From a virus (Duplodnaviria; Heunggongvirae; Uroviricota; Caudoviricetes), in the IMG/VR virus record IMGVR_UViG_2563366848_000003: DNA of 35,269 nt; one strand, 5' to 3'. Made by a program: the position numbers and the translations under genes. Below are positions 10,201-31,141 of the stretch, piece after piece (positions within the stretch are counted from its first letter, which is position 1; each line of letters begins with the position of its first letter). The notes beneath the pieces are model-generated. The model was not told where the DNA came from, made no database searches, and saw only the letters and a program-made list of their open reading frames with translations.

Positions 10201-10724
10201 ATGCGGATATCAGTGGCAGTGTGAATGCGAACTCCGGGACGCTCAACAACGTCACGATTAATGAGAACTGTCAGATTAAGGGGAAACTGTCAGCCAATCA
10301 GATTGAAGGCGATATTGTCAAAACGGTCAGCAAGTCTTTCCCCCGCACGAGCACTTATGCCAGTGGCACCATCACGGTAAGAATCAGTGATGATCAGAAA
10401 TTTGACCGGCAGGTCATGATACCGCCAGTGTTATTCCGCGGTGGTAAGCATGAGAATTTCAACAGTAATAACCAACAGTCATACTGGTATTCAACCTGCC
10501 GGTTAAGAGTGACCCGCAATGGTCAGGAGATTTTTAATCAGTCCACGACGGATGCTCAGGGCGTATTTTCCTCCGTTATAGATATGCCTGCCGGACAGGG
10601 GACGCTGACACTGACATTCACCGTATCTTCATCAGGAGCGAATAACTGGACACCAACAACCAGTATCAGCGATCTGCTGGTTGTGGTGATGAAAAAATCC
10701 ACAGCAGGTATCAGTATCAGCTGA
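7242..10724 (+). CDS. J: tail tip central fibre / host specificity protein J
   Basis: 1160-aa ORF; N-terminal ~950 aa read as lambda gpJ ([54 protein letters not shown]...). The last ~250 aa carry the receptor-binding region. Confidence 0.95.
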
Positions 10725-10741
10725 ATTTTATAACCCAGAAC

Positions 10742-10767
10742 GGGCGTCAGAAATGACGCCTTTTTTA
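10742..10767 (+). terminator. rho-independent terminator after J
   Basis: GGCGTCAgaaaTGACGCC hairpin followed by TTTTTT. Confidence 0.6.
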
Positions 10768-10790
10768 TTGCAGAAAAGCGAGAGGTAATT

Positions 10791-11390
10791 ATGCGTAAAC
10801 TTTATGCCGCCATTTTGTCCGCAGCCATCTGTCTGGCCGTATCCGGTGCGCCTGCATGGGCGTCTGAACATCAGTCCACGCTGAGCGCGGGCTATCTTCA
10901 TGCCTCGACGAACGTTTCCGGCAGCGATGATCTGAACGGGATTAACGTGAAATACCGTTATGAGTTTACGGACACGCTGGGAATGGTGACGTCATTCAGC
11001 TATGCAGGAGACAAGAATCGCCAGCTTACCCGTTACAGCGATACCCGCTGGCATGAAGATTCCGTGCGTAACCGCTGGTTCAGCGTAATGGCGGGGCCGT
11101 CTGTGCGCGTGAATGAATGGTTCAGCGCGTATGCGATGGCGGGTGTGGCTTACAGCCGTGTGTCGACTTTCTCCGGGGATTATCTCCGCGTAATTGACAA
11201 CAAGGGGAAAACGCACGACGTGCTGACCGGAAGTGATGACGGTCGCCACAGCAACACGTCTCTGGCGTGGGGAGCTGGCGTGCAGTTTAACCCGACCGAA
11301 TCCGTGGCCATTGATATTGCTTATGAAGGCTCCGGCAGTGGTGACTGGCGCACTGACGGTTTCATCGTGGGTGTCGGTTATAAATTCTGA
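10791..11390 (+). CDS. lom: Lom outer-membrane beta-barrel protein (Ail/Lom family)
   Basis: 199-aa ORF with a signal peptide ([24 protein letters not shown]), alternating beta-strand pattern and C-terminal ...GVGYKF; located after J as in lambda. SD GAGAGG upstream. Confidence 0.9.
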
Positions 11391-11416
11391 TTAGCCAGGT
11401 AACACAGTGTTATGAC

Positions 11417-11443
11417 AGCCCGCCGGTTCAGGCGGGCTTTTTT
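11417..11443 (+). terminator. rho-independent terminator after lom
   Basis: AGCCCGCCggttcaGGCGGGCT followed by TTTTT. Confidence 0.6.
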
Positions 11444-11454
11444 GTGGGGGGAAT

Positions 11455-14349
11455 ATGGCAGTACGGATTTCAGGTGTACTGAAAGATGGCGCAGGTAAGC
11501 CGATACAAAACTGCACCATTCAGCTAAAGGCCAGGCGCAACAGCACCACGGTGGTGGTGAACACAGTGGCCTCAGAAAACCCGGATGAAGCCGGGCGTTA
11601 CACAATGGACGTCGAGTATGGTCAGTACAGCGTCAGTCTGTTGGTGGAGGGATTCCCGCCGTCACACGCCGGGATTATCACCGTATATGAGGACTCAAAG
11701 CCGGGCACACTGAATGATTTCCTCGGTGCAATGACGGAGGATGATGTCCGGCCAGAGGCACTGCGCCGTTTTGAACTGATGGTGGAAGAGGTGGCGCGTA
11801 ACGCGTCCGCAGTGGCACAGAACACGGCAGCCGCGAAGAAGTCAGCCGGCGATGCCGGCACATCTGCCCGTGAGGCGGCAACCCATGCGACTGATGCTGC
11901 AGGCTCAGCACGCGCAGCCAGCACGTCAGCCGGACAGGCCGCTTCGTCGGCTCAGTCAGCGTCTTCCAGCGCAGGAACGGCATCAGCAAAGGCCACTGAA
12001 GCATCAAAAAGTGCTGCCGCTGCAGAGTCCTCAAAAAGCGCGGCGGCCACCAGTGCCGCTGCGGCAAAAACGTCAGAAACGAATGCGGCAGCGTCACAAC
12101 AATCAGCAGCCACTTCAGCATCCACCGCAACCACGAAAGCGTCAGAAGCTGCCACCTCAGCCCGGGATGCGTCGGCTTCAAAAGAGGCGGCAAAATCATC
12201 AGAAACGAGCGCAGCCTCGAGCGCCAGCAGCGCAGCTTCCTCGGCAACGGCGACAGCAAATTCTGCGAAGGCGGCAAAAACGTCCGAGACGAACGCCAAG
12301 GCTTCTGAAACGGCAGCGGGACAGAGTGCCTCAGCTGCGGCAGGCTCAAAAACAGCGGCTGCGTCGTCTGCCAGTGCCGCGTCAACAAGTGCCGGGCAGG
12401 CCTCAGCCAGTGCCACCGCCGCCGGAAAATCGGCAGAAAGTGCTGCATCGTCCGCTTCAACAGCCACAACGAAGGCTGGCGAAGCCGCTGTACAGGCCAG
12501 CGCAGCAGCGAGGTCTGCTTCCGCAGCGAAGACATCCGAAACGAATGCGAAAGCGTCGGAAACCCGTGCAGAATCCTCAAAAACGGCAGCCGCATCGTCC
12601 GCCAGTTCGGCAGCGTCATCGGCATCATCTGCGTCTGCTTCAAAAGATGAGGCGACCAGACAGGCGTCAGCAGCGAAGGGCAGCGCCACGACGGCATCCA
12701 CGAAAGCAACAGAGGCGGCAGGCAGTGCGACGGCAGCATCTCAGAGCAAAACTGCTGCTGAATCCGCTGCGACCCGTGCGGAAGCTGCTGCTGATCGTGC
12801 TGAAGAGATTGCCGGTGCAGTTGCGATGGAAGACGCAAGCCTTACAACTAAAGGTGTTGTGAAACTTAGCAGTGCTGTTGATAGCACCAGTGAATCGCTG
12901 GCCGCAACGCCAAAAGCAGTTAAAGCAGCCAATGACAATGCGAATAGCAGGGTGCCATCTAACCGAAAAGTTAACGGAAAAGCACTGACTGCGGATATAA
13001 CATTAACGCCGAAAGATATTGGTACTTTAAATTCAGTAACGATGTCTTTCTCTGGCGGGGCTGGGTGGTTCAAACTGGCTACGGTTACCATGCCACAAGC
13101 GAGTTCCATCGTTTACATCGCATTGATTGGTGGCGCTGGTTACAACGTCGGTTCCCCACATCAGGCAGGCATTTCAGAACTGGTTCTACGAGCAGGCAAT
13201 GGAAACCCCAAAGGAATTACCGGGGCTTTGTGGAAGCGTACAGCCGTCGGATTAACGAATTTCGCCTGGATCAACACATCCGGCGATACATATGATATTT
13301 ACGTTGAGATTGGCAATTATGCGACTCGTGTAAATATCCATTGGGATTGTACTGCAAATGCGACAGTTTCTATTTATACATCGCCAACATATTCAGCGAG
13401 TAAGCCTTCCAGCGTTACCGATGGTGTTGTTTATACGATGTATAGCACACATCAGAAACCGACGCCGTTAGATATTGGAGCACTGCCAACAACCGGAGGA
13501 ACAGTTTCAGGTCCGTTGTCTGTTACAGGTGGATTAACTGGTTCATTGAATGGTAATGCAAGTACAGCCACGAAATTGCAGACGGCAAGATCTATCGGTG
13601 GAGTTGTTTTCGACGGTTCTGCAAATATTAACCTTCCAGGTGTAAACACTACGGGTAATCAGAACACCACTGGTAATGCTGCAACTGCCACAAAACTACA
13701 GACTGCACGGAATATCAACGGCGTTCCGTTTGACGGCACGAAGGATATTACGCTTACGCCTAAAGATCTGGATGCCTACAGCAAAAGCGAAGTACAGAGC
13801 GCACTGGCGGGCAAACAACCGCTGGACAATACGCTGACTAATTTGAGTGGAAAGGATGTAGCTGGTCTTCTCGCATACCTTGGTTTGGGCGAAACGATAA
13901 ATAAAGCCTCCGGAGCTATGCAGAAATCGGCTAATGGAGCTGATATTTCTGATGTATCAGCCTTCCGAAATGCGCTCCAGTTAGGGACCGCCGCAACACG
14001 AGATGTTGGAGCAGATAATGCCTCGAAGTTACTGGATTTAGACAGCTTCAGGTCAATGATGTCAGGGAATGGCTACATCTACATTCCATGCATTGCGACG
14101 ACAGGAAACCCGGTGAAACTTATGTTGCAGTGGGGAACGGTGGCAACACAAAAGGGAGCTGATGCTGGATATGCCTTACCATTTGCTTTTCCCTATGCAG
14201 GCTTATTTGCGACCGGAAACCGTGGAACATCTGGCTACAATGCCGCGATGAATGTGCGTATTGCCAGCAGAACGCATATCAGTATTCAGAACTGGTCGCC
14301 ATCCGGAGAGGGCACCGAAGATTGTTGTTTTATCGCGCTGGGGTATTAA
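11455..14349 (+). CDS. stf: side tail fibre protein Stf (extended, 964 aa)
   Basis: N-terminus MAVRISGVLKDGAGKPIQNCTIQLKARRNSTTVVVNTVASENPDEAGRY as in lambda Stf; ~300-aa Ala/Ser/Thr-rich region; two phage tail fibre repeat motifs (ATKLQTAR-x-I-x-GV-x-FDG); distinct C-terminal domain ending ...FIALGY. Confidence 0.9.
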   Translation: MAVRISGVLKDGAGKPIQNCTIQLKARRNSTTVVVNTVASENPDEAGRYTMDVEYGQYSVSLLVEGFPPSHAGIITVYEDSKPGTLNDFLGAMTEDDVRPEALRRFELMVEEVARNASAVAQNTAAAKKSAGDAGTSAREAATHATDAAGSARAASTSAGQAASSAQSASSSAGTASAKATEASKSAAAAESSKSAAATSAAAAKTSETNAAASQQSAATSASTATTKASEAATSARDASASKEAAKSSETSAASSASSAASSATATANSAKAAKTSETNAKASETAAGQSASAAAGSKTAAASSASAASTSAGQASASATAAGKSAESAASSASTATTKAGEAAVQASAAARSASAAKTSETNAKASETRAESSKTAAASSASSAASSASSASASKDEATRQASAAKGSATTASTKATEAAGSATAASQSKTAAESAATRAEAAADRAEEIAGAVAMEDASLTTKGVVKLSSAVDSTSESLAATPKAVKAANDNANSRVPSNRKVNGKALTADITLTPKDIGTLNSVTMSFSGGAGWFKLATVTMPQASSIVYIALIGGAGYNVGSPHQAGISELVLRAGNGNPKGITGALWKRTAVGLTNFAWINTSGDTYDIYVEIGNYATRVNIHWDCTANATVSIYTSPTYSASKPSSVTDGVVYTMYSTHQKPTPLDIGALPTTGGTVSGPLSVTGGLTGSLNGNASTATKLQTARSIGGVVFDGSANINLPGVNTTGNQNTTGNAATATKLQTARNINGVPFDGTKDITLTPKDLDAYSKSEVQSALAGKQPLDNTLTNLSGKDVAGLLAYLGLGETINKASGAMQKSANGADISDVSAFRNALQLGTAATRDVGADNASKLLDLDSFRSMMSGNGYIYIPCIATTGNPVKLMLQWGTVATQKGADAGYALPFAFPYAGLFATGNRGTSGYNAAMNVRIASRTHISIQNWSPSGEGTEDCCFIALGY
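11850..12800 (+). repeat. intragenic low-complexity Ala/Ser/Thr coding repeats within stf
   Basis: Reiterated peptide units (AAKTSETNAKASE, SAASSASSAASSA) and matching DNA motifs such as gcggcaaaaacgtc[ac]ga[ag]acgaa at ~12061 and ~12274; similar unit at ~12523. These drive the long shadow ORFs on both strands (11678-12838, 11852-12862, 11952-12701). Confidence 0.8.
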
Positions 14350-15705: not shown

Positions 15706-17595
15706 TTAATCGTGTTTTGGCCATACTTTCAATGCAATTTCCCCCAACTTTTTACCCCGCTCCAGGATTTCATCCTCATCCCATTTATCCTTAACTATAA
15801 GTGGAATGTTCAGTCGTAGATTGGTGTGGACGATGAGAGCATCACGTTTTTTCAGAAATACAGCATTCTGAACAGAACGGTTTACGCTAAGGTTAAGCAA
15901 AGTTAGATTTCCCAACGTAGCTATCGCTTGTTGCCGTTTCCTTACCAGTAGCTGTTCTGGGGTAAGATCGGTTCCAGACAGAACAATTTGGTTCAATACC
16001 GTAGCATCTGAATTTGTCACCATATGACCATTTTCGAGAGGCCAACAGGAATACCAACTTTGAGGCATAAGATGATCGATATCGAGGTTAGAAAGATTTG
16101 GAACATCAGGCTTCTCTGTCTTCACTTGGCGACAAAGTTCTCTTTCAAGTTCCGTTAACATTGAGCGCATTTTCGGTGCGTCGAGCCTGCCAGGATAAAG
16201 TGGAGCATTGATGCAAGCGTTGAGAAATTCTGAGTCCCCAGGCCAACGTGAGGCTTCGCCATTTAAGCTATTGAGGATATTACGTAACTCAACACTGGAA
16301 ATTTCTGTTTTAGACAAGTGCCGCAATACATTCATAAATACATTGTTGTAATTCTTTGGCGTCAGGCCACATACGGCTCTTCGTACTACGTAGGAGACAA
16401 GATCATTATACATGGCTGCTTTCTCATCATCGGCGATGTTAGCTATCGAAATGAACAAAGCAAGCGGATAAAGTGTCGTCACATCATAGGCTGCGATGCG
16501 ATGTCCAAAGTGTGAGATGGGGGTTGTGCCAAAACCACCAACCAATTCTTTATATTGTGATGCATATTGTTTGAGGCGCTTTACTTGCAGATCTGCTCGT
16601 TGTGAAGGCAAGTCCTTACTTACATAATCACGATACTCATTGTAAAGACGAGACAGATCGATTTCACGTTGCCTTTCTGATTGCAATGTTGCATGCACTA
16701 GCCACTCCATGCGTGGTTTATTAATACGACCACGACGTTGTCTTTCTGACCAGTACGTATCTTCAAAGATCTTCCACTCATTCTCATATAATTCAACAGC
16801 ATTAATATTTTCATGTTCAGCGCACATAAAAATATAATTGCGAATAAGATCTGTGGCATGAAGTTCCGCACCTCTGCCATTTAATGTTTCAAAAATTATT
16901 TGAGCGTCATCTTCAGCCTCGAGAAATATGCTTACTAGTTTCAGATCCGTCAAGACAGCCTCAATTAATGCTACAGCATTTTCTCGTGGTGAGTGATTTT
17001 CTATTTTAATCCACTTTATAAAGGCTTCAGTAAAAAAACATAATGCTTCTAGTGATGGCGGGTGATTAAAATGCTTACGCAACGTACCATGCTGCGTGAA
17101 ACTATCAGAGAATACATTCCGGATATCGTCAATATTTTCAACATTAAAACTTTGAATAAAATGAGTTTGATCCCGAAAAGTTGGCCACAGTTTGAAGCGC
17201 TCTACTTCTTTATTTCGCATTGTGTCTTCGTTTGAGTTTTTCAGGCAAGACGAAATGAGAGGCTCTAAGTTGGAAAGATCTGTCGCACGTAATGCTAATC
17301 GGATGGATGCCAGAACATATTGAAGAGTGGTCAATCGTTGCTGACCATCAATAATATGTATGGAATCTACACCGAATAATCCTTTTTTTGGTTGAGGTTC
17401 CAGTACCACTGCACCAAGGAAATGGGGAGTTGGTTTTGTACCCGAGAGCCGGGATTGTGCTTTCTCTAGGATATCCTCCAGTAGAGCTGACCATTGGTTT
17501 CGCTGAGTCCATACATAGGCACGTTGATAGAATGGAACACAGTATTGTCGGCGGTCTTGAAAAAGTTGTTGGACAGTTAGCGTCTCGGATTTCAT
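15706..17595 (-). CDS. DUF262 (ParB-like NTPase, DGQQR) + DUF1524 (His-Me finger nuclease) protein; GmrSD-family putative type IV restriction endonuclease
   Basis: N-terminal motifs PFYQRAYVWT and IIDGQQRLTTL; C-terminal LDIDHLMPQS...N; about 630 aa. Start chosen at the ATG (17595) preceded by AGG, giving MKSETLTVQQLF...; an upstream in-frame ATG at 17655 has no SD. AT-rich relative to the flanking phage genes. Confidence 0.8.
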   Translation of the reverse strand: MKSETLTVQQLFQDRRQYCVPFYQRAYVWTQRNQWSALLEDILEKAQSRLSGTKPTPHFLGAVVLEPQPKKGLFGVDSIHIIDGQQRLTTLQYVLASIRLALRATDLSNLEPLISSCLKNSNEDTMRNKEVERFKLWPTFRDQTHFIQSFNVENIDDIRNVFSDSFTQHGTLRKHFNHPPSLEALCFFTEAFIKWIKIENHSPRENAVALIEAVLTDLKLVSIFLEAEDDAQIIFETLNGRGAELHATDLIRNYIFMCAEHENINAVELYENEWKIFEDTYWSERQRRGRINKPRMEWLVHATLQSERQREIDLSRLYNEYRDYVSKDLPSQRADLQVKRLKQYASQYKELVGGFGTTPISHFGHRIAAYDVTTLYPLALFISIANIADDEKAAMYNDLVSYVVRRAVCGLTPKNYNNVFMNVLRHLSKTEISSVELRNILNSLNGEASRWPGDSEFLNACINAPLYPGRLDAPKMRSMLTELERELCRQVKTEKPDVPNLSNLDIDHLMPQSWYSCWPLENGHMVTNSDATVLNQIVLSGTDLTPEQLLVRKRQQAIATLGNLTLLNLSVNRSVQNAVFLKKRDALIVHTNLRLNIPLIVKDKWDEDEILERGKKLGEIALKVWPKHD

Positions 17596-18065
17596 GGTAT
17601 ACCTGTAAGCGACATTGTACAAAAGTGAGGAGTTAATCTGATTTAGAACAATCATTTTATGTTGCTATGATACAACGTATTTGTTACCGGTTAAGTAAAA
17701 AACGCGTCTGAACGCTGACGTTTTAGGGCTTTACTAGTTATTCTTTCTTATCTCTTCATCATCCCATCGGCATCCTGTCGAGGTTGTTGACTTGTTGTTA
17801 TTTATTTTGTTTAGGCGCTGTTTAATTATTATTGATGGGACTGGTGGTGAGAGGTGATTGAAACCGCAGACAGGTCGTATGCAAGACGTGCTGCGGTTGG
17901 CTGATGCACTTTTGATAGTGCAAGTATTGAATGATTGCCAGTCACAGCGGATTGTACTTAGGTAATATGACGGTTCAAGGCGTTTAAACTGAAACCATCC
18001 ACATATCAGTCTCTTCAAACATTTCCTAAATCGTTCGGCTTATCTGTTCTTTCTCACGTTTGCTG

Positions 18066-18460
18066 ACGTCAGTGCTGATTGCCGGCAGTGTCATCATCGG
18101 TTTTACACGATACCCTTTGCGTTGAACGAGTCGTACTACTGTAACAGCGCGTCGGTGAAGCTGCTCATCCCGACACAGGACAGTCGGGATATCATTGCAG
18201 TAGCAACGGGGAGTCTGGATGCAATATGGAAAGACGGACACCGATATCAGAAAGCCGGGGTAATGCTGGGGGACTTCTTCAGTCAGAGCATGCCCTAACC
18301 TATTCGACGATAACGCGCTGGGTCCTGGGAGCGAAAAGTTAATGAGCGTGCTGGAGCACCTCAATGCAAAAGACGGGAAGGAAACACTCTGTTTCGCTGG
18401 GCAGGGCATTCAGCAGCAGTGGCAGATGAAACGCGAGATATTTTCGCACCGGTATACAAC
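18066..18460 (+). pseudogene. umuC: 3' remnant of umuC-like Y-family polymerase gene, frameshifted
   Basis: Translation reads ...RFYTIPFALNESYYCNSASVKLLIPTQDSRDIIAVATGSLDAIWKDGHRYQKAGVMLGDFFSQ then, after a frame break, ...LMSVLEHLNAKDGKETLCFAGQGIQQQWQMKRE..., matching the C-terminal ~120 aa of UmuC. No N-terminal portion or umuD is present. Confidence 0.6.
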
Positions 18461-18525
18461 TAGATTTTCTGGCATTTTAGGTGGTTAGATAGATATTTAT
18501 GCTCTACGCAATGAATATGAGAGAA

Positions 18526-19191
18526 TTAATTGTCTAAGCTGGTATAATATGAATAAAGGCTTTTTCCCATTATTTTCTCTAAATCCTTTTTGTTTCTAAA
18601 GAAAATGTTTGAGATATGCTGATGATAATACTTTATAATGATTCTCATCAGCGCCGATACTACTTCATGAAGTTTTTTCACCATTTTATGCTGTGTTGAA
18701 TTACAATCTCCCTCCATAAGTGATATAAATGTTGATGTAACATTTAGGTTCGCTTGGGGGGAGGAGTGAACATAATAACAGGCGTTGATATAGACATTAT
18801 GTAAATAAGACCAGCCTTCATCGACTTGTTGGGCTTTTAAGAAGTCAAAGTCTCTACGACGTACAGTTTGGTCAAAATCCCCACCATTGTAGTTCTTATT
18901 GAGGCTTATTCTGGCCACATGCTCCACCATTGAGCGGAAGTTCAGTTGGAGATACCGTTCTCTTTTTTTTATAATGGCAATTAAGGAGTTTAAGGTATCA
19001 TATATAAAACCTTTTATATAAGAAGAGTGATTTAGATTAGGATTGTGACTTAAAATTGTATTACAAAGACTTATTTGCCTAAATATTGATACTGATTTGT
19101 TTATTTCATCAGTGGTTCTGAGGTGCTTTTGCACCTCCGCTCTAAAATAATTTACATCTCTTCCAATGTTGAAGGGATCCTGCGTGAGCAT
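18526..19191 (-). CDS. hypothetical protein (221 aa), third gene of the ParA-like operon
   Basis: AT-rich ORF; its start overlaps the stop of the upstream 132-aa gene (translational coupling). No family recognised by eye. Confidence 0.6.
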   Translation of the reverse strand: MLTQDPFNIGRDVNYFRAEVQKHLRTTDEINKSVSIFRQISLCNTILSHNPNLNHSSYIKGFIYDTLNSLIAIIKKRERYLQLNFRSMVEHVARISLNKNYNGGDFDQTVRRRDFDFLKAQQVDEGWSYLHNVYINACYYVHSSPQANLNVTSTFISLMEGDCNSTQHKMVKKLHEVVSALMRIIIKYYHQHISNIFFRNKKDLEKIMGKSLYSYYTSLDN

Positions 19192-19589
19192 TATTCTTCT
19201 TCCTTTTTATTTGCATTAATCCAAATATTTAAATTCCTTATAGCATGCTTGCTTTTAGATGTGGATTTTTGGCTTGTTTTATTTGCATCATTAAAAATAA
19301 TGTCTAATGTGTTAATGTTGTTTAAGAAATGCGTATAAGCCATCTTTATGTCATTCTCACTTAATTCATTAATATGTCTGCAAATTTTAGCGCACATCAA
19401 AGTTCTTGACCGTACAGCATAATTCAAAAAAGATATTTTGAAGGTTTTGTTAATAAATTTACTAACATCAAAATTTGATCTAAAAACCTCTTTTGAAAGA
19501 ATCAACATAATTACCAAGCCTAAGAAGTTTTCTTTGGTCATGGGCATATTATTAGCTTTATTGAGCGCTTTAATTAATTGTTTATTCAT
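19191..19589 (-). CDS. hypothetical small protein (132 aa), second gene of the ParA-like operon
   Basis: Start overlaps the ParA-like gene 3' end by 8 nt; Lys/Asn-rich; no family recognised. Could be a small centromere-binding or adaptor protein. Confidence 0.5.
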   Translation of the reverse strand: MNKQLIKALNKANNMPMTKENFLGLVIMLILSKEVFRSNFDVSKFINKTFKISFLNYAVRSRTLMCAKICRHINELSENDIKMAYTHFLNNINTLDIIFNDANKTSQKSTSKSKHAIRNLNIWINANKKEEE

Positions 19590-20427
19590 TTGTGTTACCT
19601 TCCAAGTGAGCCACTCTGTTAATAAATTCGTTACAGATCTTTTCTATATCTTGGCGTGACTTTGAATAACAAGAAGGAATATTTCCTTGATAACCTACCA
19701 TTAAATCACGCACGTAGGTTAATTGATTTTCAAAGAAATAAAAATTTGTAAATTGAGTATGGTTTTCGAATTGTTCTTTAATTTCCCTTGTTTTATTGGT
19801 CATTTCAGCATCAGTGTTTGTATAAATGTAACCGACTTGCTTGATTTCTTTCTCATGATGTGTGCGCATATTTCTTATAACGCTATTTAAACTGCTTGCT
19901 CCAAGCACCGAGTAGTGATCAATTTTAACCGGAGTAAGATAATAATCAGAAGCAAGGAGTGCGGTATCTGTAAATAATGAGATTGTTGGGGGGCTATCGA
20001 TAAAGATATAGTCGTAACTTTCTTTTAAGTCATTTTCGGTGATGAATTTACGCAACATTTTTATTCTAATACCCTCTTGGTTAGTATCAAAGATAATGTT
20101 TATATCACCTAAGATAATATCAAGATTGTCTGAAACTTTAGTAATGACCTGTTCTGGTGTCACTTTCTTTTCATCTTCCATTAATGAATTTGGAAGCTCA
20201 AAAATCTTTCGAATGGTTTGATTATTAGGGCGAAGGGCAGTCATATATTCTTCTACTCGATCATAATGCCCCATTAAGGACTGAGTGGCATTAAATTGAG
20301 GATCAATATCGATAACTAGAACCTTGCGCCCCATATGGTTGGCTAAAAACTCAGCAATCCCAACGCATAAAGTTGTTTTACCAACCCCACCTTTCATATT
20401 GATAAAACTAATTACTGGTGCAGTCAT
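19582..20427 (-). CDS. ParA/MinD-family P-loop ATPase (deviant Walker A)
   Basis: N-terminal FINMKGGVGKTTLCVGIAEFLA (KGGxGKT deviant Walker A), VIDIDPQ and downstream DSPP motifs typical of ParA/Soj; SD AAGGA 6-8 nt upstream of the ATG at 20427. Confidence 0.8.
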   Translation of the reverse strand: MTAPVISFINMKGGVGKTTLCVGIAEFLANHMGRKVLVIDIDPQFNATQSLMGHYDRVEEYMTALRPNNQTIRKIFELPNSLMEDEKKVTPEQVITKVSDNLDIILGDINIIFDTNQEGIRIKMLRKFITENDLKESYDYIFIDSPPTISLFTDTALLASDYYLTPVKIDHYSVLGASSLNSVIRNMRTHHEKEIKQVGYIYTNTDAEMTNKTREIKEQFENHTQFTNFYFFENQLTYVRDLMVGYQGNIPSCYSKSRQDIEKICNEFINRVAHLEGNTNE

Positions 20428-20450
20428 TTTTTCATCCTTAATTATGTAGT

Positions 20451-20465
20451 GTGAAATAGATTCAC
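20451..20465. promoter_or_regulatory. candidate operator palindrome upstream of the ParA-like gene
   Basis: GTGAA-ataga-TTCAC inverted repeat 24-38 nt upstream of the ParA-like start codon. Confidence 0.25.
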
Positions 20466-21175
20466 TATGCTGAAAGCATTTTTTAGCTTAATTTTTATAC
20501 TGCGCGTTGACTTATCACCCTATCATATATGATTTTTAGGTGTTGCATAGACTGGTTTTATATCAGGGGCTTAGGTTGTATGTGGCGTCACAGAATCACT
20601 AATCATTGAACTTTGTACATGTAACAGTCCGGTTAAATAATATATAATGGGTTGTTAAGTTGGCTCTCTGATTCCTGATGCCCCAAGGACGCGCGTCATT
20701 GCGTGCCAGATTAACTTTTCGTCGGGCACAGTGCTATCGGCAATTATTTCCTCAGCCTCTTTCCCGCATAGGTCTTGGCGCATCCATTTTCTTGCTATGA
20801 AATCTCCAGCCGGTCAGACTGAAAGTATAGAAGAGAATATGCGAATCGCTGTTCCGGTGTTTCTGGGAGAGCTTATGTCGGAGTAATTCCCCGGTAATTG
20901 AATCTCTTTTGCTCGCTCATAACAGACATTCACTACAGTTATGGTAGAAAGTATGTATGCTGATTGGGGAAAGTGTGAAAGAAAAGAAGACTGCTGCGCT
21001 GTTTGTCGTCACGTTTATCTTCATTGGCTATGCAAGTCATAATACAAGGTGGGACAAAACTGAGACACATAAGGCCTCACAATGGCTTGCAAGGCTTTAC
21101 ATGTTTTGATGTGGTGGGACGTGTGAGCACAGTGTTGATGGGGTAATACTTTGAATTAGAAGCGGATTCTTATAA

Positions 21176-21220
21176 TTCGTAATGCGAAGGTCGTAGGTTC
21201 GACTCCTATTATCGGCACCA
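21176..21220 (+). other. 45-bp 3' fragment of tRNA-Thr(CGU) (thrW-like): attachment-site remnant
   Basis: attcgtaatgcgaaggtcgtaggttcgactcctattatcggcacca contains the anticodon loop (CGT), T-arm GGTTCGACTCC and the 3' acceptor with CCA, but the preceding 30 nt do not form the D-arm or 5' acceptor, so it is not a complete tRNA gene. Confidence 0.75.
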
Positions 21221-21383
21221 TCTCAACTTCCTCAAACGTCCATATTTGTCCATAAATACCCTGATTTATAAAGACTTTTCTGCTTTTAAGTCCATCTTTG
21301 TCCGTAACCATCCAGTAGAATCCGATACGGAATGTGTATAGGATTGTGTATATGTTTCTGTTCTGTCCTGGATTCCTATACAC

Positions 21384-22553
21384 ATGCCTTTAAACGATAT
21401 GCAGATTCGTCGCGCTAAGCCTGAAGAGAAACCCTATACGCTTGGGGATGGTCAAGGCTTGTCATTACTTATAGAACCTAATGGGAGCAAGAGCTGGCGG
21501 TTTCGCTATCGCTATGCCGGTAAACCCAAAATGATCTCGCTTGGTGTTTACCCAACGATCACCCTTGCCGATGCTCGTTCCCGTCGTGACGAAGCCCGCA
21601 AATTGGTCGCCGAAGGAAAGAATCCGAGTGAGGTTCGAAAAGAGCAGAAGATTGCTTTGCAAACCGAGTCTGAAAGCGCGTTCGAAAAGATAGCGACAGA
21701 GTGGCACCAGATGAAATCTGCCAAATGGTCGGCCGGTTATGCATCAGACATCATGGAAGCTTTTCAGAACGATATTTTCCCTTATGTAGGTAAAAGGCCA
21801 ATTGGCGAAATAAAACCGCTAGAATTGCTTAATGTGCTGCGTAAAATTGAAAAACGAGGTGCGTTGGAGAAAATGCGGAAAGTGCGACAGCGTTGCTCGG
21901 AGGTTTTCCGTTATGCCATTGCTACAGGTAGAGCCGAGTTTAATCCTGCGGCAGATCTCTCAAGTGCCCTCGAAGTGCATCAATCCAATCATTTCCCGTT
22001 CCTTAAAGCTGATGAGTTACCTGATTTTTTGCGTGCTCTAGACAGTTACACAGGGAGTCGGCTTGTCCTTATTGCTACGAAGTTACTGATGATTACGGGC
22101 GTAAGAACCATTGAATTACGTGCAGCTTTATGGTCGGAATTTGATCTGGATAACGCTATTTGGGAAATACCAGCAGAAAGGATGAAAATGCGTAGGGCAC
22201 ACCTTGTGCCACTATCGACTCAAGCGTTAGATTTACTTAATGAACTCAAAGCGATGACAGGAAACTACCGTTATGTTTTTCCTGGACGAAATGATCCGAA
22301 TAAGCCAATGAGTGAGGCAAGTGTAAACCAAGTAATCAAACGCATTGGCTTTGGTGGCAAGGTTACAGGGCACGGATTCAGACATTCAATGTCTACTATT
22401 TTGCATGAGCAAGGATTTGAATCGAGTTGGATAGAGATGCAATTAGCTCATGTTGATAAAAACAGTATCCGAGGCACTTATAACCATGCTCAGTATTTTG
22501 ATAAACGCAGAGTTATGATGCAGTGGTATGCTGATTATGTACAGGGGAAATAA
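21384..22553 (+). CDS. int: P4-type tyrosine integrase
   Basis: 389-aa ORF with the P4-type N-terminal domain (IRRAKPEEKPYTLGDGQGLSLLIEPNGSKSWRFRYRYAGKPK) and a C-terminal catalytic domain (HGFRHSMSTILHEQGF ... HVDKNSIRGTYNHAQY); lies 164 bp downstream of the tRNA fragment. Confidence 0.95.
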   Translation: MPLNDMQIRRAKPEEKPYTLGDGQGLSLLIEPNGSKSWRFRYRYAGKPKMISLGVYPTITLADARSRRDEARKLVAEGKNPSEVRKEQKIALQTESESAFEKIATEWHQMKSAKWSAGYASDIMEAFQNDIFPYVGKRPIGEIKPLELLNVLRKIEKRGALEKMRKVRQRCSEVFRYAIATGRAEFNPAADLSSALEVHQSNHFPFLKADELPDFLRALDSYTGSRLVLIATKLLMITGVRTIELRAALWSEFDLDNAIWEIPAERMKMRRAHLVPLSTQALDLLNELKAMTGNYRYVFPGRNDPNKPMSEASVNQVIKRIGFGGKVTGHGFRHSMSTILHEQGFESSWIEMQLAHVDKNSIRGTYNHAQYFDKRRVMMQWYADYVQGK

Positions 22554-24053
22554 ATGCAAACTTCGAGAGCTATTAATAAAAATGTCGGGGGAAATGACTC
22601 TGAAAAATATCTTTCTAAGCTGTGTGAAAGAACTTTTTTAAGCTTGTGGAGTTATCCAAATGTTTATACTGATGAAGGAAAAAAAACGGCGTCGGGAGAT
22701 GGGAAGGAACTCTGTGATCTTCTAGTTGTATTTGAAAATCATGTCATAATATTTTCCGATAAAGATATTTCGTTTAAGGATTCAGGGGATTTAAAAGTTG
22801 ATTGGGGGCGTTGGGTTAAAAGGGCTGTTATTAAATCCGCAGTTCAACTTTATGGTGCCGAGTCATCATTAAAAGAGAGACCCGGTAGGTTATTTCTTGA
22901 TGCTAAGTGTAATGTCCCTTTTCCAATTAAAGTGCCAAAGTGTGACGAAATTATCGTTCACCGAATTGCTGTTGCAAAGAATGCATCAAAAAAATTCCAA
23001 GAGCATTCTGGCGGTTCTGGGAGTTTGATTATATGTCCGCGCATAGTGGGAAACCAACATTTTGATACTCCGTTTATGATCGGTCAGCCCATTGCTGACA
23101 AGCCTTATGTGCATGTTTTTGATGATATTGCTTTAGATATTATACTTTCTGAACTCGATACAATTGCTGATTTTATAGATTATCTTAGTAAGAAGGAAGA
23201 ATTTATTGCTTCAGGAGGACTAAACTCGGCAGCGGGAGAGGAAGAACTTTTAGCATGGTACTATATAAATGCTAAAGATGGGCGTGAGCCGGGGTTTTAT
23301 ATAGAGAAAGGAGTATCAGCTTTGATTGTTGAGGGGGCCTATGAATCTCTTAAAAACCTTCCTCAGTTTATTAGAGGGAAAGAACTAAATTCTAATTCTT
23401 ATTTTTGGGATGCCTGTATAGAAAATTTTGCGAAACATATGCTTAGTGGGACAATATTGTCCGAAGGGGATTTTTCATTTGATGAGATGACTCGTGGTCT
23501 AAGAATTATGGCATCCGAGACGAGATTTTCAAGGCGTATACTATCAAATGCAATAATTGAAAAAGTCACCTCCATCCCTCATGGGCAAAGAGGTGTTAGA
23601 GTTTTGGTCTCTCCCAGTAACAGCGATAATGGGTATGTTTGGCTAGTGGTTCCGGTGCCAGAATGTTGCACATCATATGATGACTATAGAAAATATCGTA
23701 AAGATACTCTCTCTGTTTACTGTGCTTCAGCAAAGCTACTTTTCCCGGATATGAAATATATAGTTGGAGTTGCCACAGAACCGATGGGGGGGAATGGAGG
23801 GGAAGATATGGTGTTTATTGATTCAACTCAGTGGACAGAGGATGACTACGAAAGAGCTCGAAAAGATAGAGATGAATTTAAAGCTTTACTTCCGGATAAT
23901 ATTAAAAGAACTGATGATCACGATTATCAATTCCCTATTCTTCCTGGAGACTATCCTGAAAAAGAAACTTTAAGGGTTGAAAAGAATAGTAAGGCTAGAA
24001 TAAAACGAATTAAAAAGGCGCAAAAAAAAGCCCGTAGAAATAACAGAAAATGA
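22554..24053 (+). CDS. hypothetical protein (499 aa), cargo at the integrase-proximal position; possible nuclease-like N-terminal region, basic C-terminal tail
   Basis: ATG immediately follows the int stop (TAAATG) with SD AGGGGA; AT-rich. N-terminal segment ELCDLLVVFENHVIIFSDKD is loosely reminiscent of a PD-(D/E)xK core (unverified); C-terminus KNSKARIKRIKKAQKKARRNNRK is highly basic. Confidence 0.7.
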   Translation: MQTSRAINKNVGGNDSEKYLSKLCERTFLSLWSYPNVYTDEGKKTASGDGKELCDLLVVFENHVIIFSDKDISFKDSGDLKVDWGRWVKRAVIKSAVQLYGAESSLKERPGRLFLDAKCNVPFPIKVPKCDEIIVHRIAVAKNASKKFQEHSGGSGSLIICPRIVGNQHFDTPFMIGQPIADKPYVHVFDDIALDIILSELDTIADFIDYLSKKEEFIASGGLNSAAGEEELLAWYYINAKDGREPGFYIEKGVSALIVEGAYESLKNLPQFIRGKELNSNSYFWDACIENFAKHMLSGTILSEGDFSFDEMTRGLRIMASETRFSRRILSNAIIEKVTSIPHGQRGVRVLVSPSNSDNGYVWLVVPVPECCTSYDDYRKYRKDTLSVYCASAKLLFPDMKYIVGVATEPMGGNGGEDMVFIDSTQWTEDDYERARKDRDEFKALLPDNIKRTDDHDYQFPILPGDYPEKETLRVEKNSKARIKRIKKAQKKARRNNRK

Positions 24054-24091: not shown

Positions 24092-24874
24092 TCAATCTTT
24101 GGCGTGTGATTTAAATTTAAATGATATTTTTCTCTTGGTATTTCTTAAGGATTTTGAAATTCGCCATTTTAAATTGAATAAAGTATCCAATAGCTTTTCT
24201 GAGTTCTGCTTATTTAGTAGTCTGTGTTCTTGTCTTATCATAAGGAATATTTCAAGGTATGGGTCGTCAATTTTTTCTTCCAGTTCTTCACAAGAGTAGC
24301 TGTTGACACGTTCAAGAGCGATATATTCCATCCTTATCTCATTTGGTTCCCTTAAACTTGTTTTTTCCCATTCTAATCTAATTGGCTTACTAAAAAGGGA
24401 TATGTTCTCCTTAATATGTGCCATAACACGTCTAAAACGATTGTTAAATTCTTCATTATCAGTATGCATAACTGGTGATTGATTTCCTAATAATGTTGAA
24501 CTTTTTTCTCTTTGGAATTTGTAATATTCCTCTGATACTTTTTTGCTAAAGCTGGCTTGATCTGATTTATTCTTGAAGCTTATATGTTCATAACTATCCG
24601 GACCATATATTTGTTCCATCCAGTGCAACTGACTAAATTGATTGACGGCTTGTTCTAAATCTTTATCTTCTGATGTGTATGTTTTCTGTGATTTTATTTT
24701 GTAGTCGAAAAGTAGTAAGTCGCAAACATCGAAGTAGATTTTGTCATAAGTTCTTAGACGTTCTATTTTTCTATTGTATTTTGACTGGCGAATGGTATTT
24801 AAAAATCCTAGGCAGGATATGATAAAACCACCTATAGAAATATATAAAGAAATTGAAGTGTTATCCTGCACCAA
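24092..24874 (-). CDS. hypothetical membrane-anchored protein (260 aa) with an N-terminal transmembrane helix
   Basis: N-terminus MVQDNTSISLYISIGGFIISCLGFLNTI is a predicted TM helix followed by a charged domain of unknown function. Convergent with the 499-aa gene (38-bp gap); AT-rich. Confidence 0.65.
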   Translation of the reverse strand: MVQDNTSISLYISIGGFIISCLGFLNTIRQSKYNRKIERLRTYDKIYFDVCDLLLFDYKIKSQKTYTSEDKDLEQAVNQFSQLHWMEQIYGPDSYEHISFKNKSDQASFSKKVSEEYYKFQREKSSTLLGNQSPVMHTDNEEFNNRFRRVMAHIKENISLFSKPIRLEWEKTSLREPNEIRMEYIALERVNSYSCEELEEKIDDPYLEIFLMIRQEHRLLNKQNSEKLLDTLFNLKWRISKSLRNTKRKISFKFKSHAKD

Positions 24875-25646: not shown

Positions 25647-25922
25647 TCAGACAGGAATTTGCTGGCGGTTTGAGAGCCTGGAGGCTGCGCCATATTTTCC
25701 GAGTGTGTGAGCTGACTTCTCTGATTGCTCGCTTGCGGTTTCATCCTTGGTCTCAACCTTGTTAGGCCGGGCAATAATCGTGTCCACGCTCTCCAGTGCG
25801 GTGAATGTGCATGAGCACTCCAGGTTTTTGCACTGATAGTAAGTCCGCTTTATGGATGGGGCCTCATAAAAGCTTGAACGGGCATGTGAGATTGCGCCGC
25901 ACTCAGGACACTGTAAAGCCAT
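25647..25922 (-). CDS. Ogr/Delta-family zinc-finger late transcription activator
   Basis: MALQCPECGAISHARSSFYEAPSIKRTYYQCKNLECSCTFTALESV has the Ogr/Delta C-x2-C-x22-C-x4-C arrangement; start at 25922 with SD GGAGGA 6 nt upstream (the tabulated ORF begins 5 codons earlier). Confidence 0.85.
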   Translation of the reverse strand: MALQCPECGAISHARSSFYEAPSIKRTYYQCKNLECSCTFTALESVDTIIARPNKVETKDETASEQSEKSAHTLGKYGAASRLSNRQQIPV

Positions 25923-26475
25923 AGGCTTCCTCCGCAAGTTTCAGGCGCTTGAGCCTGTCCTGAAAAGTTTTATGCTTCGCCGGAGTGAATCTCTTCGAGG
26001 CATCCATGCGCATTGATGCATCAGGCGATAAACCTGATTCATCAAGGATTTCACGGCAGGACTCAAGCAGTTCTGGAGCATTGAGTTCCGAATAATGCGC
26101 CAGCGCCAAACGCAGCACACGTGCAGCAACATCAAGGCCAAAGGGGCCGTTCAGATAAGGTGCCAGCGCTGAGGTCAGCGCCTTGCCCGAATTTGCCATA
26201 AATTCACTCAAGGCATTATCAACACAGGCATCCACGACACTTCTCTGCGCGTAGAGACCATCATTTGCCGCACAGCTGATCTGCCATTCAAGCACTTCTA
26301 GCTTTTCTCTGAGAGTTTCAACCTGCCAGGCATAATTGTAAGGCTTATCTGCAGACAGCAACAATGCCTGCAGCCGTAGTTGGGCTGTACTTTGCTCGTT
26401 GCGAAGTGATAGCCAGCTCTGAGAAGCATCCCGGTAGTGATGCAGCGCTTCCTTAGGGGTAATTGTGGTGTCCAT
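25903..26475 (-). CDS. psu: Psu-like protein (polarity suppression / capsid decoration homologue)
   Basis: 190 aa, the same length as P4 Psu; recalled similarity in the C-terminal half (ALTSALAP..., KRFTPAKHKTF vs P4 ALAAALAP..., EKFTPAQNMIF). Confidence 0.65.
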   Translation of the reverse strand: MDTTITPKEALHHYRDASQSWLSLRNEQSTAQLRLQALLLSADKPYNYAWQVETLREKLEVLEWQISCAANDGLYAQRSVVDACVDNALSEFMANSGKALTSALAPYLNGPFGLDVAARVLRLALAHYSELNAPELLESCREILDESGLSPDASMRMDASKRFTPAKHKTFQDRLKRLKLAEEAYGFTVS

Positions 26476-26569: not shown

Positions 26570-27319
26570 TCACTGATCTCCTTCGGTCAACGGAGATTGT
26601 ATTTTCCGCATTGATTCTCCTTTAAGTTCGATCTTGATACTGCCATGAACCAGTCGATCTAGGATGGCATCCGCATGTGTGGAGTCTCCGATCATTTTGT
26701 ACCAGTTTTCCACCGGCAACTGGCTCACTACGATGATTGAGCCTCGTTGGTACATCAGATCCACTATTTCCAGCAGGTCGCTACGCTGTTCTGATGAGAG
26801 AGGTTCCAGCCCCCAGTCATCCAGAAGCAGCAGATCGCTATTATTCAGCCTGGTCAAAAGTTTGCTGTATCTTCCATCAGCATGCCCCTGATAGCACTGT
26901 TCCATCAGCGCTTTAAGGCGATAATAGTAGACCTTGTATCCCTGTCGGCAGGCATTATGACCAAGTGCACATGCCAGGAACGTTTTACCGCTGCCGGTGG
27001 CCCCGGTCAGTAAAATATTTTGTTTCAGGGTTAACCAGTTTCCCTGACTGAGTGAACGGATGAGGGCCCTGTCCAGCCCTCTATTGTTACGATAATCCAG
27101 CTTTGATAACTCAGCATTAAGTCTGAACCGTGCATGTTTGATCAGACGCTCTGCCTTCCTGTTTTCACGGCAGGTTAGTTCTTCTGCTGTCAGTAATGAC
27201 AGGCGTTCTTCGAAGCCCAGCTCCTGGTATGTGCCCGGCTGAGCAAGTTGCTTTTTAAGCGCATCACGGAAGCCGGTGAGTTTAAGTGCGGTCAGTTGTT
27301 CGTAAAGATGATTCATCAT
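26570..27319 (-). CDS. istB: IS21-family transposition helper ATPase IstB
   Basis: 249 aa with Walker A GATGSGKT and Walker B LLLLDDWG, IstB/DnaC-like. Confidence 0.93.
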   Translation of the reverse strand: MMNHLYEQLTALKLTGFRDALKKQLAQPGTYQELGFEERLSLLTAEELTCRENRKAERLIKHARFRLNAELSKLDYRNNRGLDRALIRSLSQGNWLTLKQNILLTGATGSGKTFLACALGHNACRQGYKVYYYRLKALMEQCYQGHADGRYSKLLTRLNNSDLLLLDDWGLEPLSSEQRSDLLEIVDLMYQRGSIIVVSQLPVENWYKMIGDSTHADAILDRLVHGSIKIELKGESMRKIQSPLTEGDQ

Positions 27320-27330: not shown

Positions 27331-28872
27331 TCAGTGGTAATACTCACTGCCGCGTACGTTTTCGTGTTCCATCGTGGATAACAGATCTGGTTTTGGATCC
27401 TGAACAGGTTGTTTATCCAGACCTTTTTCCAGGATCGATTTAATACCTGACAGACGCCATACCTTTGTTTTCAGAGCTCTTGCACATGCTGCATTAAGTC
27501 TGGCTTTACTGTATTTTTTATGAAGGTTCAGGAGTCCAAGGCAGAAGCGATAGCTTTGTTCCGGATGTGGACGAGAGTTCAGTATATGAAGCACATAACT
27601 ATGAGTTTCACTGCCTATGTGCCCCGCCCATTCCAGAAGACGCTCTGGCGTCCAGGTGGCATGCTGTCGATGAGCTTCAGGCATGTGCTCGTTGCGGGTA
27701 CTGTAGCCATAAGTACGCTTGCGCGGGTGCACAGCAACCTCCTGCCCCTGATTGAAGAGTCTTACCAGTTCTCCGGAGATCCATGCTTCCAGTTGCTGGC
27801 CTAACAGCGAACATGGAACCGAGTAGTAATGTTTGTCGATTTCCACGTGGTAATCGGCATGAACTCTGACTTTCTTCACCAGGGTGTAACTGTAACTGGC
27901 TTCAGGAAGAGGCTTCAGTGCGGGTTTATCAAGCTGGATGAAGAGTTCTGCACGTGAATAACCCAACTTCTGCATTATTTTGTTATTCAGTCTTTCCAGC
28001 AACTCCCGAATGCGCTGATTAAGCGATGCAAGGCTGTAGAAGATCTCATGCCTGATTCGGGCCATGATCCAGCGTTCAACAACCTGAACGCCAACTTCAG
28101 CTTTGGCTTTATCTTTCGGTTTACGTGGCCGCGCAGGCAAAACTGCGACATTATAATGCTCAAGCATCTGCTGGTAGGTAGGGTTAACGTCAGGATCATA
28201 CTTACATGCCCTGGATGTGGCGCTTTTCAGATTGTCCGGAACAACAAGTTCAGGAACGCCACCCAACCACTGGAAGCAGCGAACATGACTCATCACCCAG
28301 TCTTCAAGCTGCTGAGACCAGGTGGCCTCTGCCCATGTGTAACTTGATGCCCCGAGAACAGCTACGATGACCTGAGCAGTTCTTATTTCTCCGGTCTCAG
28401 GGTCGGTAACGCCAACGGTAGGTCCACAGTAATCAACGAAAAGTTTTTCGCCAGCTTTATGTACCTGACGCATTGATGGTGAAGTGGTTTTGAGCCATTC
28501 ACGGTACATCCGGCAGTAATGGTTATAGCTGTAAAAACCGCCTGGATTACGCTCACAGTATTCTTCCCAGAGTAGCTGCAGCGTCACGCATTTATTACGC
28601 AGTTCCCGGTGTACTGTAGCCCAGTCAGGCAGAGAGTGCTTCTTCATCTTAACCTGGGTCTGAAGGAACGCATGTTTTAGTTTTGTATCATCCCATCCTG
28701 TAGGTAAGGGCCACTGCTTTATGCCAAGTTGAGCCGCCCGATTAGCATATCTGGATACAACGGAAGGGGAGATTGCAAGACTACGACCAATTTGTCGATG
28801 GCTGAGTCCAACACCGTATTTAAGCCTAAGAATTTCTTTAAGTTTTCTCATAGAAATTGGAACTGTTGGCAT
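27331..28872 (-). CDS. istA: IS21-family transposase IstA
   Basis: 513 aa with an N-terminal HTH (LKYGVGLSHRQIGRSLAISPSVVSRY) and a DDE core; located 11 nt upstream of istB. Confidence 0.93.
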   Translation of the reverse strand: MPTVPISMRKLKEILRLKYGVGLSHRQIGRSLAISPSVVSRYANRAAQLGIKQWPLPTGWDDTKLKHAFLQTQVKMKKHSLPDWATVHRELRNKCVTLQLLWEEYCERNPGGFYSYNHYCRMYREWLKTTSPSMRQVHKAGEKLFVDYCGPTVGVTDPETGEIRTAQVIVAVLGASSYTWAEATWSQQLEDWVMSHVRCFQWLGGVPELVVPDNLKSATSRACKYDPDVNPTYQQMLEHYNVAVLPARPRKPKDKAKAEVGVQVVERWIMARIRHEIFYSLASLNQRIRELLERLNNKIMQKLGYSRAELFIQLDKPALKPLPEASYSYTLVKKVRVHADYHVEIDKHYYSVPCSLLGQQLEAWISGELVRLFNQGQEVAVHPRKRTYGYSTRNEHMPEAHRQHATWTPERLLEWAGHIGSETHSYVLHILNSRPHPEQSYRFCLGLLNLHKKYSKARLNAACARALKTKVWRLSGIKSILEKGLDKQPVQDPKPDLLSTMEHENVRGSEYYH

Positions 28873-29050: not shown

Positions 29051-29812
29051 TCATGAAAATACGCAGCTTTGCCCCTTCTTCGCTTTTTCACGCTGTTTTT
29101 GTATGCGGATTTGCGCCGCCGGGCTGGGGGCGTTCTGAATATCCTGATAGGCACTATTATCAGCAAGTACACCAATTTTATTCAGGAAAGGGTCACTCTG
29201 CAGAGAGGCATTCTGTTTCAACGCCGGATTAGTGATTGAAGAAGTAATGAAATCCCGCAATAGCGTTTCAGGATCATTCACAGAATGGACAACACCAATT
29301 ACAGAGCTGGCACTTCTCCCTTTTGTCACTTTGAGAAGGCTTAAAAGCTGGATAAGGGTTTGACCATGCTGCTTCATAAAATCATGCCAAAGCTGGTTAA
29401 CATGGGTTTCGATAAGATTATCATGTGCCTGAATGTAACCACGGGCCAGTTCCGCCGTTTTCCATGGGAGATACTCATTCTCTCCGGCATGGGCCGCAAG
29501 CAGATCATCAAACTCGTCGAGTGTTTCACGCCCCAGGGCAATCTCAGCCCTTAGTTTTTTCATTTTCGGCGTTACCTGTCCCTGGTTTTCATGAAACATC
29601 TGACGCCATTCTTCATTTTGCGCCTTTGCCTCCGTTTCCGTTTCTACACGGCGTTTACGGATTGTTGCGAGCATCGCAGCAGCATCAATTTGTTTGCGAC
29701 GGGCTTCCGTCCAGGCTGATTTGGCAGCATTCACTTTTTCAAGCGCCTGTTGTGTCGCAGCAGGGATAGAAATATCAGCAGTCGATTTATTGCTCTGGTC
29801 TGGGATAGTCAT
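29051..29812 (-). CDS. sid: Sid-like capsid size determination protein, C-terminus altered by the IS21 insertion
   Basis: N-terminus MTIPDQSNKSTADISIPAATQQALEKVNAAKSAW resembles P4 Sid; about 250 aa, coiled-coil rich. The last 4 codons and stop (CVFS*) are read from the IS end. Confidence 0.6.
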   Translation of the reverse strand: MTIPDQSNKSTADISIPAATQQALEKVNAAKSAWTEARRKQIDAAAMLATIRKRRVETETEAKAQNEEWRQMFHENQGQVTPKMKKLRAEIALGRETLDEFDDLLAAHAGENEYLPWKTAELARGYIQAHDNLIETHVNQLWHDFMKQHGQTLIQLLSLLKVTKGRSASSVIGVVHSVNDPETLLRDFITSSITNPALKQNASLQSDPFLNKIGVLADNSAYQDIQNAPSPAAQIRIQKQREKAKKGQSCVFS

Positions 29813-30729: not shown

Positions 30730-30990
30730 ATGCGTAATATTTCTGTGTCTGCGCCAGCTCCGGCTGCGCCATTATTTCCTGTACCGAACCAGCATGAACG
30801 ATTTTTACGCCTGCCTGAGGTGATGCACTTATGCGGGTTGTCCCGTTCGACCATTTACGACCTGATCAGTCGCGATGCGTTTCCGAAGCAGATCCCGCTT
30901 GGCGGTAAAAATGTTGCCTGGGCACAGTCTGAGGTCAGCGCATGGATGGCGGACCGTATCAGCGCCCGTGGGCGGGGATGTGATGCATGA
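30730..30990 (+). CDS. alpA: AlpA/Vis-family DNA-binding regulator (phage-island excisionase-like)
   Basis: [53 protein letters not shown] is the AlpA helix-turn-helix signature; SD AGAGGG 8 nt upstream of the ATG at 30730. Confidence 0.8.
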
Positions 30991-31117: not shown

Positions 31118-31141
31118 AGACGCGCCAGGCGTCTTTTTTTT
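31118..31141 (+). terminator. rho-independent terminator after alpA
   Basis: AGACGCgccagGCGTCT followed by TTTTTTTT. Confidence 0.55.

Follow-up and report, generated by a model that had tools for sequence, protein, structure and literature searches.

What could a ParA-like ATPase gene do at the end of a lambdoid prophage, followed by two genes of no known family? The question is raised by a three-gene operon in a virus record of 35,269 nucleotides (IMG/VR IMGVR_UViG_2563366848_000003; this whole stretch of DNA is called the window below), which is chromosomal and 99.9% identical to many complete Escherichia coli genomes. The initial annotation offered two answers, a novel defence or exclusion system using a ParA-like NTPase, or a captured type Ib partition cassette with an extra gene. 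From our comparative analyses, the operon very probably belongs, as a diverged E. coli variant, to the RemAIN family of prophage defence and prophage competition systems, with a RemN-like anticodon nuclease, a RemI-like immunity partner and a RemA-like ATPase as a functional unit. The defence part of the first answer is hence upheld by gene-for-gene homology to remAIN; the system is not novel, as RemAIN was published in 2024. The partition cassette is rejected, with a small protein that is not ParB/ParG-like and no iterons.

The anatomy of the operon agrees with the initial annotation in the number, strand, length and overlapping stop/start codons of its genes (Table 1). The ATPase gene and the gene of the 132-aa protein share 8 nt (ATGAATAA), and the latter overlaps the gene of the 221-aa protein by 1 nt (TAATG), the usual sign of translational coupling. 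Likewise, the block is as AT-rich relative to the tail genes as had been noted, with a G+C content of 0.29–0.36 over 18526-20427 versus 0.55–0.63 over 1-12500. Neither the 132-aa nor the 221-aa protein matched Pfam or NCBIfam, in keeping with their description as proteins of no known family, and a scan of 18300-21500 against Rfam gave no match. The operon also matches no catalogued system model in PADLOC-DB v2 (2023), a release that predates RemAIN, and it is for this reason that the operon looks unassigned.

The remAIN genes (STM14_3218-3220) form an anti-phage defence system of prophage Gifsy-1 in Salmonella Typhimurium 14028 (Sargen et al. 2026, PMC13043305), which that paper traces to Sargen and Helaine 2024 (Cell Host Microbe 32:2063). 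Among the homologous loci, we take L002, a triad behind a cI-like repressor gene in a Salmonella lambdoid prophage, to be the remAIN locus of 14028-type Gifsy-1 or a near-identical copy, since several features of its sequence agree. The repressor, CII, O and P genes follow each other in the order described for the Gifsy-1 variable region, and the ATPase gene and the third gene have the published lengths of STM14_3218 (the ParA-like ATPase gene, 840 bp) and STM14_3220 (663 bp), between which lies STM14_3219 (PMC9879122). Furthermore, a 210-aa protein encoded 3.5 kb from the triad (L002 2581-3213) carries NNIR(100)NKYAH(105)K, i.e., the published R100-H105 motif of HepS/STM14_3211, and of the named proteins in the L002 cluster most come from Salmonella enterica (serovar Newport among others) and a few from Klebsiella, Enterobacter and Citrobacter, in line with the published distribution. 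All three window proteins align with their L002 counterparts: the ATPase with 65% identity to RemA over 275 aa (E 2e-125), the small protein with 33% identity to RemI over 129 aa (E 1e-17) and an RSRTL motif common to both, and the 221-aa protein with 49% identity to RemN (E 4e-77) and the same R-x4-H motif.

Papers citing Sargen and Helaine 2024 describe RemA as an ATPase, RemI as an immunity protein and RemN as a HEPN anticodon nuclease, and state that the Salmonella system blocks infecting phages as well as co-resident prophages by cutting tRNA anticodon loops. RemAIN lowers the plaquing of external phages, e.g., ES18 and FO1 (PMC13043305, PMC12724215), the remN product is described as tRNA-cleaving and as inhibiting prophage ST64B (PMC12626290), and according to a conference talk the system keeps persisters from being lysed by their own prophages (PMC11044969). 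Kurasz et al. (2023, PMC9879122) found that a three-gene Gifsy-1 region of strain 14028s, situated in the immunity region adjoining the repressor gene gfoR, is needed to make the signal that switches on RtcR, which in turn activates transcription of the RNA repair operon. This signal is RNA with a 2',3'-cyclic phosphate end; it arose only under SOS or prophage induction, and expression of the three genes alone was insufficient. The functions of STM14_3219 and STM14_3220 were left unassigned in that study. For anti-phage activity, tRNA cleavage, the part played by each component and the requirement for a signal from SOS or prophage induction we thus rely on this Salmonella literature, in part as relayed by citing papers.

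The first gene of the window operon encodes a ParA/MinD-type ATPase, as had been proposed. The protein matches Pfam AAA_31 (E 7.9e-38), CbiA (7e-17) and phrog_164 (2.2e-57), and has a deviant Walker A (KGGVGKT) and a Walker B (DSPP) motif. Among solved structures, H. pylori Soj (6iub, E 1.5e-18) comes closest, and T. thermophilus Soj is also one of the nearest relatives. The stretches FINMKGGVGKTTLC, DPQFN and PPTIS are invariant in the ATPases from E. coli to Bacillus and Desulfosporosinus, and the Walker B serine is replaced by cysteine (DCPP) in one Bacillus ATPase (L014). With 44–97% identity across loci, the ATPase is the most conserved member of the triad; the small protein (31–83%) and the nuclease (26–91%) diverge much faster. 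Such an ATPase, truly of the ParA/Soj type and with its deviant Walker A motif intact, would also suit a partition cassette, and NCBIfam ParA_partition and PrgP indeed gave sub-threshold matches, but the partition scores lie far under the cut-offs (77 versus 180 bits for ParA_partition). PADLOC-DB v2 gave only weak P-loop matches (PDC-M28B, 1.9e-6 over 40 residues).

For the small protein, six helices and no strands are predicted, and its S-R-T-L-x-x-A core is invariant across the family. The order of an ATPase gene and then a small gene resembles parF-parG, and the initial annotation had suggested, in one of its two readings, a small centromere-binding protein at this position. This was not supported: the predicted all-helical protein lacks the N-terminal strand of a ribbon-helix-helix (RHH) fold, searches gave no ParG, ParB or helix-turn-helix (HTH) match, and no structural match was informative.

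The third protein, formerly a mere extra gene product, appears by predicted fold and motif to be a HEPN nuclease effector. Its model has the four-helix up-and-down topology of HEPN proteins. The matches listed for this assignment comprise TT1696, a Csx1 fusion, 4nqf and 1wol, and, lower down, LsoA (8.3), the HEPN toxin 7ae2 and Csm6. In the fourth helix lies R86-S-M-V-E-H91, an R-x4-H motif conserved without exception in 31 close homologues. A fold search of BFVD with the nuclease model returned nothing below E 0.2, a sequence search of the PDB with the family profile had no match, so that no solved RemN structure was found, and PADLOC-DB v2 held no match for this protein.

Homologues of the nuclease formed 31 clusters at 90% identity, all from Enterobacterales, and an exhaustive profile search with the family yielded 102 representatives at 50% identity; a narrower family alignment gave five loci in species-representative genomes. 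In all 14 distinct loci examined the order ATPase–small protein–nuclease is identical, and the nuclease gene is present in every triad. The positions of the triad are diverse. Apart from the Salmonella locus, it adjoins an integrase in a P4-like island of Dickeya, stands beside a giant polymorphic toxin in an island of Yersinia enterocolitica, follows a lambda-type int directly in Y. intermedia, and lies between structural genes in a Pantoea prophage. At prophage ends it adjoins umuDC in Enterobacter (L008) and a tail-fibre assembly gene in another E. coli prophage, and in PBSX-like prophages of the Bacillus pumilus group (L014-17) it comes after the lysis cassette. Triads also occur in Erwinia, Xenorhabdus, Vibrio and Desulfosporosinus, and Klebsiella carries relatives. 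Movement of a cassette between the moron slots of unrelated elements typically marks a defence module, not a housekeeping or partition function. In a set of 5,426 complete E. coli genomes, most of the searched locus is present at ≥99% identity in 52, and 16 more gave lower-identity matches. The Phage GenBank collection contained no match by megablast or tblastn; PHROGs has families for all three proteins.

Insertion sequences (IS) were repeatedly seen in the ATPase gene of the triad: IS1 in Dickeya (6003-7620 of that locus), and IS1, IS903B or IS3 in several E. coli genomes. These hits could reflect a fitness cost or selection to inactivate the system.

Taking the operon's anatomy, its homology to remAIN of Gifsy-1, the predicted HEPN fold of its nuclease with the R-x4-H motif, the conserved ATPase motifs and the mobility of the triad together with the Salmonella work, a mechanism may be pictured as follows. 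In the lysogen, the RemN-like HEPN anticodon nuclease, the RemI-like immunity partner and the RemA-like ATPase would form a latent three-part complex, in which the ParA/Soj-type ATPase presumably controls or senses. Infection by a phage, or lytic growth of a co-resident prophage, would release the nuclease, which would then cut particular tRNAs in the anticodon loop and leave 2',3'-cyclic phosphate ends. As a result, translation would stall, and late development and lysis of the competitor would be blocked. That a variant with 65, 33 and 49% identity to its Salmonella counterparts acts likewise, and how RemA and RemI would gate RemN, we infer.

Several points weigh against assigning the operon to RemAIN. 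The component roles are second-hand, taken from papers that cite Sargen and Helaine 2024, and plasmid-borne remAIN did not restrict FO1 in strain LT2 (PMC12724215), which suggests that RemAIN depends on the host or on other prophages. The window copy does not adjoin a repressor gene, unlike that of Gifsy-1, and no promoter was identified for it. At 33% and 49% identity of RemI and RemN to the Salmonella proteins, the variant could differ in trigger, in targets and even in activity. Pfam gave no HEPN family for the sequence of the 221-aa protein, and none of 81 distant family members matches a Pfam family named HEPN; the only match to a family of HEPN-like fold is that of one member to MtlR (PF05068, E 0.021). 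Moreover, 60 of these 81 proteins have asparagine in place of H91 of the R-x4-H motif, while R86, E90, Y134 and H142 never vary and C138 hardly does. This pattern puts the catalytic histidine, and with it the set of catalytic residues in the RemN family, in question; these HEPN proteins may have a non-canonical active site.

We may go one step further, if only tentatively. The window variant might respond to a different trigger and cut different tRNAs than the Gifsy-1 system. Together with its Bacillus and Desulfosporosinus relatives, it might show how an ATPase of the ParA/Soj type, whose usual task as a motor is to position DNA, serves an immune nuclease as sensor or switch, with the R86/E90/Y134/H142 pattern pointing to a non-canonical HEPN active site. 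This extended proposal is possible, though we consider it rather less than an even chance.

Could the three genes instead be an addiction module, i.e., a HEPN toxin, a small antitoxin and a ParA/Soj regulator that stabilise the prophage or arrest growth under stress, with no real anti-phage role in E. coli? ParA/Soj-HEPN pairs have been predicted to be toxin–antitoxin systems (Anantharaman et al. 2013, PMC3710099), in Salmonella the triad responds to SOS or prophage induction in the absence of external phage (PMC9879122), and the shielding of persisters from their own prophages, as presented in the talk (PMC11044969), points the same way. However, RemAIN reduces plaquing of ES18 and FO1, and the cargo slots are of the defence type, in the window beside a GmrSD restriction enzyme. 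We thus regard a pure addiction module as unlikely, keeping in mind that addiction and defence roles may coexist. Less probable still is an inactive remnant decaying in a degraded prophage end. Its neighbours are pseudogenes (DinI and UmuC fragments and the remnant of an SOS response-associated peptidase, SRAP), some genomes have IS elements in the ParA gene as listed above, and the operon lacks an identified promoter, but the three open reading frames are full length and collinear with their homologues, invariant motifs and coupling overlaps are intact, and 52 complete genomes keep most of the locus almost unchanged. Finally, a type Ib partition cassette segregating an episomal form of the phage is hardly credible for the RemAIN-like operon, for besides the unsuitable small protein and the low partition scores, a search of 20400-21250 for the centromere-like iterons that the initial annotation proposed to look for found no repeats beyond short chance matches, the triads sit in integrated prophages and islands at varied positions (even amid structural modules) with no replicon to partition, a HEPN nuclease gene is always attached as the third gene, and the effect of deleting the Salmonella triad was not mediated by plasmid copy number or segregation (PMC9879122).

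Upstream of the RemAIN-like operon, no convincing sigma-70 site was seen, and the promoter and terminator scan was uninformative, with promoter-like matches at the level of shuffled sequences. The initial annotation had pointed to a small palindrome, GTGAA-N5-TTCAC. It is located where described, but it carries little meaning: the 273-bp upstream region has five perfect 5-nt inverted repeats versus 3.5 ± 2.3 in shuffles, 29% of which reach five, and in the nearest relative, Enterobacter L008, one arm is mutated. As an operator it was therefore discarded. The upstream region is common to the window and L008. Some 100 bp before the start codon of the ATPase gene it contains ATCATATATGAT, a perfect 12-bp palindrome that is kept in L008; of the two palindromes, this one is the better operator candidate.

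The genes preceding the block are lambdoid tail genes, Lom, tail fibre and Tfa, then a GmrSD gene and the DinI and UmuC pseudogene fragments. With these lambdoid genes before it and a tRNA-Thr fragment and a P4-like satellite after it, the operon lies in the terminal cargo region of a lambdoid prophage, beside a second mobile element. Its earlier placement between tfa and attR is thus right as to the prophage end after Tfa (and GmrSD) and only approximate beyond the operon, where the SRAP remnant, the tRNA-Thr fragment and the satellite come next. The GmrSD enzyme, encoded after the tail-fibre genes and before the RemAIN-like operon, makes the prophage end a small defence island. The operon of Enterobacter L008 has intact umuDC and SRAP genes on its flanks, from which it follows that the E. 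coli copy descends from an arrangement of the L008 type whose neighbours have decayed. Within the satellite, two AT-rich genes occupy the gap between int and psu, which Rousset and co-workers reportedly described in 2022 as a defence hotspot of P4-like satellites. Their products, of 499 and 260 aa, had no match in Pfam, NCBIfam or PADLOC, and we regard the pair as an unclassified defence candidate.

Table 1. Positions of the RemAIN-like operon and of its neighbours in the window
Feature	Position	Strand	Size	Remarks
GmrSD/DUF262 type IV (modification-dependent) restriction enzyme	15706-17655		649 aa	Intact; PADLOC mREase_IV, 1439 bits
DinI and UmuC (DUF4113) pseudogene fragments	18026-18490			
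remN-like gene	18526-19191	minus	221 aa	Predicted HEPN-fold nuclease; R86-S-M-V-E-H91 (R-x4-H)
remI-like gene	19191-19589	minus	132 aa	Small protein, predicted all-helical; RemI counterpart
remA-like gene	19582-20427	minus	281 aa	ParA/Soj-type ATPase; open reading frame call, Pfam, homology
Upstream non-coding region	20428-20700	minus		Presumed promoter region; GTGAA-N5-TTCAC (20451-20465) and 12-bp palindrome ATCATATATGAT (20522-20533)
SRAP remnant	20655-20900			Past the ATPase gene
tRNA-Thr 3' fragment	21175-21222		48 nt	Matches annotated tRNA-Thr genes at 100% identity; beginning of a separate P4-like satellite
P4-type integrase	21384-22553			
AT-rich gene	22554-24053	plus	499 aa	phrog_18195, only match
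AT-rich gene	24092-24874	minus	260 aa	No match
Psu	25903-26475			P4-like satellite
istB (IS21)	26570-27319			IS21 inserted in the satellite
istA (IS21)	27331-28872			IS21 inserted in the satellite
Second Psu-like gene	29051-29812			
Ash	30987-31544			
Primase-helicase	32042-34432			

A block so far annotated as "ParA family protein" plus two hypothetical proteins now has a proposed function. In general, RemAIN-type systems come into view as a mobile cassette carried as prophage cargo, which is not peculiar or confined to Gifsy-1, given the relatives in Klebsiella, Enterobacter, Yersinia, Vibrio, Bacillus and Desulfosporosinus. The locus predicts, for the E. coli lineages that carry it, a tRNA-cleaving block to infecting phages and competing prophages, which bears on phage therapy and prophage biology. 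Furthermore, the divergent nuclease and immunity proteins beside a conserved ATPase provide natural variants for studying specificity and the role of the ATPase. The spread to Vibrio, Bacillus and Desulfosporosinus, the many cargo positions and the motif pattern that questions the catalytic histidine may go beyond the RemAIN descriptions given in citing papers; Sargen and Helaine 2024 may already cover part of this spread, of the positions and of the motif pattern.

How does the RemAIN-like operon compare with known systems? With type Ib partition systems (ParA/ParF and an RHH ParG, e.g., of TP228, or delta-omega of pSM19035) it shares a small ParA with a deviant Walker A motif and a small gene behind it, but it lacks an RHH or HTH centromere-binding protein, centromere repeats and a replicon, and has the HEPN nuclease gene attached. 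PrrC and RloC are likewise latent anticodon nucleases linked to an NTPase and released on phage infection; in these, however, an ABC-type NTPase domain is fused to the nuclease, PrrC is masked by a type I restriction enzyme, and the proteins are unrelated in sequence. MNT-HEPN (MntA-HepT) and RnlA/LsoA differ in that the neutraliser is a toxin-AMPylating nucleotidyltransferase or a small antitoxin, without a ParA-type ATPase. HepS (STM14_3211) of Gifsy-1 is also a prophage-encoded HEPN anticodon nuclease that causes translation arrest, but as a single self-sensing protein activated by the tail-tip protein J and with other tRNA targets (PMC13043305). A relation of RemN to HepS was considered and rejected, with no detectable sequence similarity (BLASTP E 4.4).

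Closer in design are the ParA/Soj-HEPN pairs of the MAE_18760 family, in which the genes of a ParA/Soj-type ATPase and of a HEPN RNase are coupled and the ATPase was proposed, on genomic grounds, to control the RNase (Anantharaman et al. 2013, PMC3710099). These pairs have two genes instead of three and a different HEPN family, and the ATPase itself is the proposed antitoxin, whereas the window operon has a separate small protein as its putative immunity partner. In Gifsy-1, remAIN stands behind the repressor gene in the immunity region, whereas the window operon is found behind tfa, GmrSD and umuC remnants, where the late region ends, and has its own upstream region. The sequences of the two have strongly diverged, especially in RemI and RemN, but they agree in the three genes and their order, in the coupled junctions and in a lambdoid prophage as carrier.

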